Positions 28,193-30,172 of a stretch of 61,807 bases of DNA are shown here, one piece after another. Position 1 is the stretch's first letter. Every line of letters starts with the position of its first letter. Source of the DNA: Candidatus Heimdallarchaeota archaeon (GTDB lineage: Archaea; Asgardarchaeota; Heimdallarchaeia; JABLTI01). The stretch covers positions 1-61,807 of the forward strand of contig JAHLVW010000012.1 of the NCBI GenBank assembly GCA_019058275.1. The letters are read 5' to 3'. The translations under genes were made by a program, and so were the position numbers. The notes under the pieces are model-generated. The model saw nothing but the letters and a program-made list of their open reading frames with translations, ran no database searches and was not told where the DNA came from.

Positions 28193-30172
28193 TTATTCGT
28201 TGTTTTCTAGATTAACTGGATAGAATTTCATATTTGCAGACTTCTTTAAAGGTCTTTTTCCAAAGAAAAGACCCATCGTTAGAAAGAGAAATGCTAAGAA
28301 CACTCCTAATTCAATCCACATTATCATATTTGCGGTGATGGTATTGTTTATTCCATCAGCAATTTTAGTGTTTAGTTCAGTAAACAATCCAACGATAAAT
28401 GGTATTAGACCAAGTATTAAGCCTATTGATGTTGTAAATCTTTGCCAGAAGACGCTAGCAACTACTGAAGGAGTATTGACAGCAAAAATATTCTTGTTCC
28501 TATACCAAAGACCAACTCTTCCATTTACTTTACCGCGACCAATTAATGGAGTTATACTAAACTCAGCAGAAACCACATTTTCATCGTCTAAGCTAATAAT
28601 TTCTTCACTTGGTGTAACATAACAGCCTGGAAATATTGGTTGGACTTTCACTTCAGTAAATTCATTACCATTTGTTGATGGAGGTGGAATTCTAATTATT
28701 AGAGGATAAACTTTTTGTGGATGCATTCTCTCATAATATTCCAAGCCAATGCTTCTTTGTTCCAGTTTTTCAGCTACTTTTTCTTCAGCTTTTAAAGCAG
28801 TCTTGAGTGTTTCCAATTCTTTCTTTCTTTTAGCTAATCTTTCATCTAATGGTAAATCTTCGTCGATGGCAAATGGTTCAGGCATAGTTTCAACAATTTC
28901 TGGCTCTTCAACTAGTAAAGTATCCTCTGTTTCTACTATAGGTTTCTCAATTGTTGGTTCTGTTAAATCAGCTTGAATATCTATATCTTCAATCACTCGT
29001 TTCAGTTCATTTATTTTATTTAACATTGGTTCCCCTTTAAACACTGGAGTTTCGTCACTTACTAAAATAGTATCTTGCTCCTCTTCTACTTCTTCCTCTT
29101 CAAAAGCAGCAGGTAAATCAAATGATTCTATTTGATCTTCTGGTTCTAGATCTTCTACCAATTGTTCATCATCAATAATATCGATTGATTCAACATCACT
29201 TACATCTTCATCTATTGTTAATTCATCTTCAGAATCAAAAACATCTAATGGGCTTTCATGAAGTGTTTTTTCTTGCGCCTCATCAGCCATTATCCCTTTG
29301 AAGACCTCTTCAACTATTGATTTTTTATCAACAATTTCTAGTTCTTGTGTGTCAATTAAAGGTTCTTCATCTACAGTAGCAAGTTGTTCCCATGGATATT
29401 GAGGGCTAATTTCCTCTTCTACCTTATCAATCAACTCAGAAACTTCTTCATCTAGTTCCGCTGATTCTTTCTGTTTCTCTTGGTCTTCAAATGAGTCTAA
29501 ATAATGATCTGTTATAGTATCAACTTCTGCTTGTTCACTTTCAGAAACCTCAACTAATTTGCTAGCAATCTCTACAATATCTAACTCTTCCATTTTAGGT
29601 GGATAGACCATTGTATCTTCAACATCAACTTGATCATCCTTTTCACTTGTAGAGGGGTCTTTTTCTGCAAGCTCTACCAAAGAATCTCCTAAATCTTTAT
29701 CGACAATTCGATAGAAATTTCCCCAAGAATTCAATACAAATGCTGTTGGCATACTAAAAACTTCAGCATCCATAACTTGACCATCTTGTCTCTCTATAGC
29801 TACATCTCTAATTTTTATAGAGAAGCTTTTACAAGCAGTTCTATAGGTAGCAGCATAAGGGATGGCTTCTGGAACTTCGAGATCGATAACATATTCACCA
29901 TGATTAAAGGTAACAACACTTGAATCGCCAGCATAAAACTCAGTGCCATGTTTTTGAACCAGAAAATCAATTGTTGAATAATGATTTTCAATTACAACTA
30001 TTTCACCAACATGATTTATGGTTGCAATAATTCTAGGTTCTATCCTTAATGTTGTTTGCAATTCATCCATAATTTGTATTAGTAAAGTTCCTCTTGGTAC
30101 CCGAAATGTAAAATCGACAACTTCGGAATCTATCAGAACTTTAAAACCGATTGTGTGTATATAGCCACTCAA
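28193..30172 (-). CDS. Membrane-anchored protein: tandem UFM1-like domains, long acidic linker, coiled coil, beta-sandwich, two C-terminal TMs
   Basis: Residues ~5-82 and ~85-162 resemble UFM1 (VPEAIPY..AI..DG..WGNFYRIV; KHGTEF). D/E-rich region ~165-440; YYERMHP..PIFPGC.VTP..F.ITPL domain; hydrophobic C-terminus. Confidence 0.7.
   Translation of the reverse strand: MSGYIHTIGFKVLIDSEVVDFTFRVPRGTLLIQIMDELQTTLRIEPRIIATINHVGEIVVIENHYSTIDFLVQKHGTEFYAGDSSVVTFNHGEYVIDLEVPEAIPYAATYRTACKSFSIKIRDVAIERQDGQVMDAEVFSMPTAFVLNSWGNFYRIVDKDLGDSLVELAEKDPSTSEKDDQVDVEDTMVYPPKMEELDIVEIASKLVEVSESEQAEVDTITDHYLDSFEDQEKQKESAELDEEVSELIDKVEEEISPQYPWEQLATVDEEPLIDTQELEIVDKKSIVEEVFKGIMADEAQEKTLHESPLDVFDSEDELTIDEDVSDVESIDIIDDEQLVEDLEPEDQIESFDLPAAFEEEEVEEEQDTILVSDETPVFKGEPMLNKINELKRVIEDIDIQADLTEPTIEKPIVETEDTLLVEEPEIVETMPEPFAIDEDLPLDERLAKRKKELETLKTALKAEEKVAEKLEQRSIGLEYYERMHPQKVYPLIIRIPPPSTNGNEFTEVKVQPIFPGCYVTPSEEIISLDDENVVSAEFSITPLIGRGKVNGRVGLWYRNKNIFAVNTPSVVASVFWQRFTTSIGLILGLIPFIVGLFTELNTKIADGINNTITANMIMWIELGVFLAFLFLTMGLFFGKRPLKKSANMKFYPVNLENNE

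Follow-up and report, generated by a model that had tools for sequence, protein, structure and literature searches.

Why should an archaeon carry two UFM1-like domains side by side at the front of a membrane-anchored protein, and do they serve there as the precursor of a conjugatable tag or as a fixed part of that protein? The question is raised by a gene in a stretch of 61,807 nucleotides (the window) from a Candidatus Heimdallarchaeota archaeon (assembly GCA_019058275.1, contig JAHLVW010000012.1, positions 1 to 61,807 of the forward strand). The gene lies at 28193..30172 on the minus strand, starts with TTG and encodes a protein of 659 amino acids (aa) with a tandem UFM1-like head, an acidic stalk, a charged helix, an immunoglobulin (Ig)-like sandwich and a two-helix membrane hairpin. 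The reading we favor, with a probability of roughly two-thirds, is that the protein is a constitutive cytoplasmic docking head, in which the pair of UFM1 folds acts non-covalently and is neither cut at Gly162 nor conjugated.

A tandem UFM1-family head on an acidic stalk

The start of the 659-aa reading frame coincides with that of its orthologues in the alignment. At the N-terminus are two UFM1-family beta-grasp domains, D1 (residues 1-83, nucleotides 29924..30172) and D2 (residues 84-163, nucleotides 29684..29923; these and all following parts of the gene are on the minus strand). The original prediction had recognized this pair from the sequence, and the motifs that it quoted are present, although the histidine of one of them, the KHGxE motif of D1, is mostly replaced by tyrosine in the orthologues. 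The acidic stalk that follows (residues 164-440, nucleotides 28853..29683) was delimited by composition and orthologue identity. It had been described as a D/E-rich linker of about 280 aa, and measures 277 aa with 35% D+E; it is probably disordered, is 257-501 residues long in the orthologues, and contains the short conserved islands M[VI]YPPK (189-194) and YPW (259-261). Next comes a charged segment, ERL...KKEL (residues 441-470, nucleotides 28763..28852), which is conserved and probably helical but short; the coiled coil originally proposed here is possible only. The C-terminal module comprises an Ig-like beta-sandwich (residues 471-574, nucleotides 28451..28762) and a two-helix membrane hairpin (residues 575-638, nucleotides 28259..28450). 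Both had been anticipated, as a beta-sandwich and two transmembrane segments, and both appear in the predicted structure, with a predicted local distance difference test (pLDDT) value of 88; hydropathy places the hydrophobic helices at about 579-597 and 617-638. In the same model, a K/R-rich sequence beyond the second helix (residues 642-650, nucleotides 28223..28249) forms a beta-strand. Identity across ten orthologues drops from 74-77% in the head to 53% in the charged segment, 46% in the sandwich and 26% in the stalk. The invariant surface of D2 includes the RTACK helix, the RQDGQ loop and W150.

The fusion gene is present as a single copy in 11 of the 12 genomes of its family, the exception being a genome that is 69% complete (family genomes range from 64 to 93%). 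The orthologues are 642-918 aa long and come from genomes labelled Heimdallarchaeota or Asgard, with one Gerdarchaeota, one Zixibacteria and one Bathyarchaeia; the last two are probably misassigned bins. Outside the family the tandem head was not found among 400 Asgard genomes or 1.8 billion protein representatives. A sixth match to the head in the protein search (P0018) was a low-complexity repeat artefact.

Profile comparisons assign both domains to the UFM1 family. D2 matches Pfam Ufm1 (PF03671) with an E-value of 0.0025 in this protein and is matched by it in every one of the 11 orthologues, at best with E 8.8e-6; Ufm1 is the only Pfam family shared by all of them, other ubiquitin-like (UBL) families matching at most one of the 11. 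The top 13 matches of the D2 profile in the PDB are all UFM1 chains. The likeness of D2 to human UFM1 that the original prediction pointed out is borne out. D1 alone has no Pfam or PDB match, and its UFM1 character is seen only by way of Asgard UFM1s. Among Asgard genomes the head profile recovered free proteins of 87-88 aa in Heimdallarchaeaceae. Together with related sequences, these gave an Asgard UFM1 profile of 25 members, which D1 matches with an HH probability of 93 (E 3.6e-7, 80 columns) and D2 with one of 95.4 (E 1.7e-8). The corresponding scores are 39 and 46, against at most 19 (D1) and 17 (D2) for column-shuffled controls, and at most 12 for three MoaD/SAMP proteins and another ubiquitin-like protein of the genome. 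D1 is this genome's best match to the free Heimdallarchaeum UFM1, and the fusion is its sole UFM1-family match (E 3e-9; next 0.25). With a joint Asgard-only profile to which both D1 and D2 contribute, human UFM1 is retrieved at E 1e-6 in an alignment that reaches the terminal glycine; the next ubiquitin-like protein is at 0.065. A phmmer search of the head against the PDB returned chance ResA matches only; the family becomes visible with profiles.

The gathering score of PF03671 (27 bits) is not reached: this protein scores 17-18 bits, and the best in the phylum search was 20.5. Since none of the 400 Asgard genomes reaches it, the cut-off is evidently tuned to eukaryotes; the best Pfam Ufm1 match among these 400 genomes, D2 of one of the orthologues, still falls below it.

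The structure prediction and structural comparison that the original prediction had suggested gave a beta-grasp fold twice (pLDDT 70, one of five models). Foldseek matches of the head model are tandem ubiquitin folds, with tandem UBLs, UBX, SUMO and UBL domains at the top. D2 reaches a Z score of 8.5 (root-mean-square deviation 2.7, 77 residues aligned) and D1 one of 7.8 (2.2, 68 aligned); the 50 highest-ranking structural matches of the head span about 1 Z unit and do not include UFM1, and at this model quality shape does not separate the beta-grasp families. Neither of the outcomes that the original prediction had named as refuting it was obtained: both domains model as beta-grasp folds, and in sequence no other ubiquitin-like family stands as close to them as UFM1, which confirms D1 and D2 as members of UFM1 at the level of family profiles. 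Compared directly, D1 and D2 have no detectable similarity (HH probability 0.2). In a tree of Asgard sequences (89 columns, eukaryotic UFM1 left out, bootstrap unsettled) both sit on very long stems in unsettled positions, and the sequences are compatible either with a duplication or with two separate recruitments as the origin of the tandem.

The Gly-Asp site and the search for conjugation enzymes

The original prediction likened the end of D2 to the terminal glycine of human UFM1 and proposed a D-L-G site there. A glycine does lie near the canonical position, but it falls one residue short: in the ungapped register Gly162 is aligned with the Val of the Val-Gly end of conjugatable UFM1s, and it is Asp163 that is aligned with the Gly. 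It is not D-L-G that is conserved but G-D: the pair Gly162-Asp163 (nucleotides 29684..29689, with Gly162 at 29689-29687), located by orthologue alignment and register, is invariant in 19 of 19 distinct sequences, in which all four glycine codons are used. The preceding residue is Leu, Glu, Ser or Lys in the orthologues and never Val, and after the pair there is a conserved tendency towards x-hydrophobic-hydrophobic-[DE]-P-P. In the operon-encoded UFM1s of other Asgards, described below, the Val-Gly end is invariant in 25 of 25 and the next residue is variable; selection on the tail of D2 is the reverse of that on a modifier. D1 has no tail: its invariant Gly82, six residues after the glycine of K[HY]G, ends the last strand and leads directly into the first strand of D2. 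Neither domain has a C-terminal Val-Gly that is free or could be exposed by processing.

An invariant G-D pair at the boundary between domain and stalk might instead mark a site of regulated shedding without conjugation, at or near which the head would be released as a soluble signal or to end docking, and a glycine follows the UFM1 domain in Lokiarchaeial fusions as well. The position of that glycine differs among lineages (+11, +12, +13), however, no protease is linked to the locus, and the conserved hydrophobic pair and P-P after G-D fit a turn and a short strand packed on the head. Shedding is for these reasons very unlikely in our estimation, and G-D with its following residues would more readily form such a turn and strand than a processing site.

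About a tenth of Asgard genomes contain an operon for a UBA5-like E1, a JAB protease, a UFM1-like tag ending in V-G and a UFC1-like E2; an example is L057:5831-8659 in Heimdallarchaeum aukensis (G026), and others are at loci L027-L066 and L106. Human UBA5 scores 248 bits on the profile of the operon E1, compared with 142 for E. coli MoeB. The E2 has an invariant Cys in ICH[DE]HM, and all of its PDB matches are UFC1. Among prokaryotes, D1 and D2 have their closest relatives in the free UFM1s of this operon (87-95 aa); unlike the two domains, these proteins have the invariant V-G end, and their genes lie beside those for E1, E2 and protease, none of which was found in the fusion family. UFM1 and UFC1 were regarded as eukaryote-only by Picchianti et al. 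(PMC10183829), and the operon is more important than the membrane fusion itself. It is accompanied by genes for a Cdc48-N-like plus zinc-ribbon protein (recognized by eye, with a weak CDC48_2 match), an ESCRT-II (EAP30) protein and an SPFH protein (companions at L060:3237-4316, L057:2300-3412, L106:411-1508 and L057:8838-10529). At L027, L028, L030, L033, L039, L040, L045, L051 and L106:3587-4420, UFM1 and UFC1 are fused in one gene with the internal V-G intact; judged by sequence, these appear to be true precursor fusions, in contrast to the membrane protein.

The fusion family gave a different result. UFC1 was detected in none of its 12 genomes, either by Pfam (the same search being positive in 29 of 400 other Asgards) or by an Asgard profile. 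The 12 genomes yielded neither a UBA5 orthologue nor a free UFM1 of the operon type: against the Asgard UBA5 profile the top E1 scores in the family are 141-160 bits, on a par with E. coli MoeB and far from human UBA5, and a short free UFM1 relative in one further genome of the family lacks a terminal Gly. In the genome studied here no operon-type JAB orthologue was found (best E 0.068), and searches for UFSP/C78 and for UFL1, neither with a positive control, were empty. The genome does encode five JAMM proteins and three ThiF-family enzymes. One of the latter is the convergent neighbour of the fusion gene (27091..27846, plus strand), conserved across the family. It scores 117 bits as ThiF and 69 as UBA5, and has no Cys at the E1 catalytic position in seven family sequences; this ThiF/MoeB-like protein is not UBA5, and may be an adenylation-only enzyme or a pseudo-E1.

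A separate, SMC-linked conjugation cluster lies on another contig of this genome (C33:7015-14841). There, SMC, kleisin-like and ScpB-like genes (by eye) are followed by genes for a JAB protein, an E1, a 103-aa ubiquitin-like protein ending in Q-V-G and an E2-like protein; the tag has no detectable UFM1 likeness in profile comparison, and a similar cluster occurs in genome G127 (L063).

These searches bear on the other suggestion of the original prediction, a cleavable precursor. A JAMM protease would cut after Gly162 to yield an ISG15-like tandem UFM1 tag, which a non-cognate E1 would pass on for conjugation in the manner of archaeal SAMPs, without an E2. An invariant glycine near the canonical position, the JAMM and ThiF-family proteins of the genome, the conserved ThiF neighbour, and the UFM1-UFC1 genes as proof that Asgards do make UFM1 precursor fusions all speak for it. 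Nevertheless, the tail is one residue short, with no Val before the Gly and an invariant Asp after it; UBA5, UFC1 and operon-type free UFM1 were not found in the 12 genomes, nor an operon-type JAB orthologue in this one; and the neighbouring ThiF protein lacks the catalytic Cys. We therefore regard a cleavable precursor as quite improbable.

The membrane anchor and the proposed docking head

What, then, would hold a non-conjugated UFM1 pair in place? Of 301 Asgard genomes, 58 contain the module formed by sandwich and hairpin, among them almost all of the Heimdallarchaeia searched except for one family; it always stands behind a low-complexity stalk, and its heads are interchangeable. Besides UFM1-like domains, these heads are Rab-like GTPases, TPR-like repeats and helical domains (read by eye), and an SPFH-like domain (Pfam E 0.0014). 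Searches of Pfam and of PDB sequences gave no match to the C-terminal module, structural searches gave no specific one, and a word-based search returned only the module itself. Structural matches of the sandwich are generic Ig folds (Z up to 9.6), and Atlas matches of the module are unnamed Asgard and bacterial clusters, so that bacterial look-alikes exist.

Several other proteins with this anchor were observed. A paralogue in the same genome (C80:21164-22627), present in most of the genus, has the same acidic stalk, Ig sandwich and hairpin behind a different N-terminal head, which by eye resembles a kinase N-lobe. At L148-L151 and L136 (genomes G158, G159, G131 and G086) the anchor carries Rab-like GTPase domains, apparently tandem or permuted; these are small GTPases tethered to the membrane without lipid anchors.

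Lokiarchaeia also have UFM1-stalk-anchor proteins (G136, G146 and G148). The protein of G136 has a single UFM1-like domain on the same anchor; in those of G146 and G148 one UFM1 domain is clear and a second possible, and the anchor is divergent (E 1.3e-4). The clear domain of the latter two clusters at 98/95 with the operon UFM1 of G146 itself, apart from D1 and D2 (in a tree that is short and weak elsewhere), and ends in A-G-G-G-P, the V-G having been lost. No free operon UFM1 was found in G136, G144, G145 or G148. Together these sequences suggest that Lokiarchaeia converted the UFM1 tag into a fixed, anchored domain separately. UFM1-like domains without a tail Gly are also fused to other partners in Asgards (L101:4834-7524, L162, L163, L165, L104 and L103; by eye SIR2-like, TIR plus GTPase, and HIT-like), and small free tail-less UFM1-like proteins occur at L107, L110 and L097; the UFM1 fold is widely reused as an integral domain in these archaea.

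Both ends of the 659-aa protein are probably cytoplasmic, because it has no signal peptide or N-terminal membrane segment, a basic tail follows the second helix, and its sister proteins carry GTPase heads. The basic strand at 642-650 probably completes the Ig-like sandwich by pairing with it, which would likewise put both ends in the cytoplasm. The opposite arrangement, an outward-facing protein, or a head that is a structural or self-assembling cap without a dedicated partner, finds its encouragement in the Ig-like sandwiches common in archaeal surface proteins (CARDB-type matches). Against it are the missing signal peptide and N-terminal membrane segment, the basic residues after the second helix, the cytoplasmic GTPase domains on the same anchor in sister proteins, and the lack of conserved N-glycosylation sequons in head and stalk; we consider it extremely unlikely.

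In the docking mechanism that we infer, with cytoplasmic topology, a disordered stalk and binding as the function, a rigid pair of UFM1 folds would be permanently displayed on the cytoplasmic face of the membrane, in which the Ig sandwich and hairpin would fix the protein. The acidic, length-variable stalk would be a flexible spacer, by simple arithmetic about 100 nm long when fully stretched, and the head would capture a conserved soluble partner and hold it near the membrane, much like the built-in UBL/UBX domains of membrane adaptors in eukaryotes. The protein would then be a former modifier turned adaptor. Of the two functions first imagined for it, a built-in UFM1 signal at the membrane thus survives as a non-covalent docking head, with tethering supported by the architecture; for conjugation, no UFM1-attaching enzymes were found in the genomes of the family. 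The leading guesses for the partner are, by analogy with these adaptors, an AAA ATPase of protein quality control, either Cdc48, of which the genome has two full genes, or PAN; or else the neighbourhood of ribosome, translocon and oligosaccharyltransferase (OST). No conserved motif of the ATG8/UFM1-interacting type was found in the stalk. Human UFM1 binds UBA5 through a surface formed by Phe35 and Glu38 (PMC5428781), and in the alignment of D2 with the UFM1 profile these positions read Thr and Lys, which makes a reader of the eukaryotic type an unlikely partner.

This substitution is one of several points that weigh against a docking head. No counterpart of the operon's Cdc48-N-like gene, whose product is a candidate reader, turned up in the fusion family. 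Gly162 is invariant despite synonymous codon change and, with a glycine also following the last UFM1 domain in Lokiarchaeial fusions, leaves room for a proteolytic role at this residue. The genome has other JAMM proteases and E1s, including those of the SMC-linked cluster with its UBL ending in V-G; archaeal SAMPs are conjugated without an E2, a caveat to the absence of UFC1; the family genomes are incomplete, at 64-93%; and the model of the head is modest in quality.

Neighbouring genes and relation to known UFM1 systems

The gene immediately downstream, 70 nucleotides away on the same strand (27892..28122, minus strand), encodes an OST5/TMEM258-like oligosaccharyltransferase subunit (Pfam Ost5, 28 bits, above the cut-off of 27.4). 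Divergent from the fusion gene on its other side is a gene for a GT22 mannosyltransferase of the Alg9/PIG-B type (30260..31981, plus strand; Pfam E 3.9e-47). The OST5-like gene keeps its position, and the GT22 gene its divergent, syntenic one, in every family locus examined, and the fusion is thus flanked by endoplasmic reticulum (ER)-type glycosylation genes in an archaeon. A scan for promoters and terminators was at chance level and gives no support to co-transcription with OST5.

In eukaryotes, UFM1 works on the 60S subunits located at ER translocons (PMC10937380). With this role and the constant company of OST5 and GT22 in mind, the protein might be a translocon or OST accessory, a permanent mimic of the UFM1 mark on ER-bound ribosomes that would bring ribosomes or rescue factors into place at the Sec/OST site. 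This would be a special case of the docking head and not an alternative chemistry. The 15-kb block is syntenic within this one family only, however, so that the adjacency may be mere inheritance and serves as a lead only; among the other anchor-module genes and the Lokiarchaeial UFM1 fusions whose loci were fetched (with short flanks), none has OST5 as its neighbour; and UFL1 was matched neither in the genome, in a search with no positive control, nor in the large solenoid protein described below. Such an accessory role seems to us rather improbable. Unlikely too, in our view, is the related idea that the protein is a hard-wired UFM1 mark which replaced a lost UBA5-UFC1 cascade and recruits the ancestral reader at the translocon/OST site. 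If it were true, D2, the most eukaryote-like UFM1 sequence in the Asgard genomes scanned, would show that the reading of UFM1 at membranes predates eukaryotes.

Two further syntenic genes of the window may be recorded. One (33608-40543) encodes a TPR/SNAP-like solenoid of 2311 aa, conserved in place across the family; a UFL1-like reading of it was rejected, as its C-terminus gave only weak winged-helix/PCI matches and none to UFL1. The other (25578-26363), three genes from the fusion, encodes a PAC2-family proteasome assembly chaperone ending in F-Y-T, which is HbYX-like.

With eukaryotic UFM1 (PF03671; PDB 5ia7, 5l95 and 8bzr) the head shares the beta-grasp fold and sequence at the family level, and D2 keeps the segment VPE..PF.A..(K/R).A...F......I...DG. 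It differs in being a tandem within a 659-aa membrane protein, in lacking the V-G end, in scoring at most about 26 bits where Pfam sets 27, and in that UBA5, UFC1 and UFSP were not found. Koestlbacher et al. (2026, PMC12962969), in the accessible portion of their paper, report Ufm1 homologues in nine Asgard clades, the same family in the same superphylum, and state in the methods that some partial or multi-region matches were trimmed to the best segment; the fusion protein may be among these, and that portion describes no tandem, stalked, membrane-anchored form or mechanism. Our literature search likewise found no description of a tandem membrane UFM1.

Integral, non-conjugated ubiquitin-fold domains on the cytoplasmic side of membranes are familiar from HERPUD1, TMUB1 and UBXD8/Ubx2, and tandem UBLs from ISG15 and FAT10. 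The fusion resembles the former in carrying a non-terminal ubiquitin-fold domain on a membrane anchor, probably on the cytoplasmic side. In contrast to all of these, to which no sequence homology was shown, it belongs to the UFM1 family, has neither the UBX F-P-R loop nor di-Gly ends, and uses an Ig-hairpin anchor of Asgard and bacterial type. Thus, new here is a UFM1-family member of the type in which an integral ubiquitin-fold domain sits on a membrane anchor.

The anchor itself, Ig sandwich plus hairpin, is unannotated, and many Asgards use it to carry GTPase, SPFH, TPR or UFM1 heads. Before 2024-26 UFM1 was taken to be exclusive to eukaryotes, in which it works at the ER membrane. That the UFM1 fold is tethered to membranes, with no conjugation enzymes found, in Heimdallarchaeia and, apparently separately, in Lokiarchaeia suggests that membrane signalling by the UFM1 fold predates the eukaryotic pathway, as does a reader for it.

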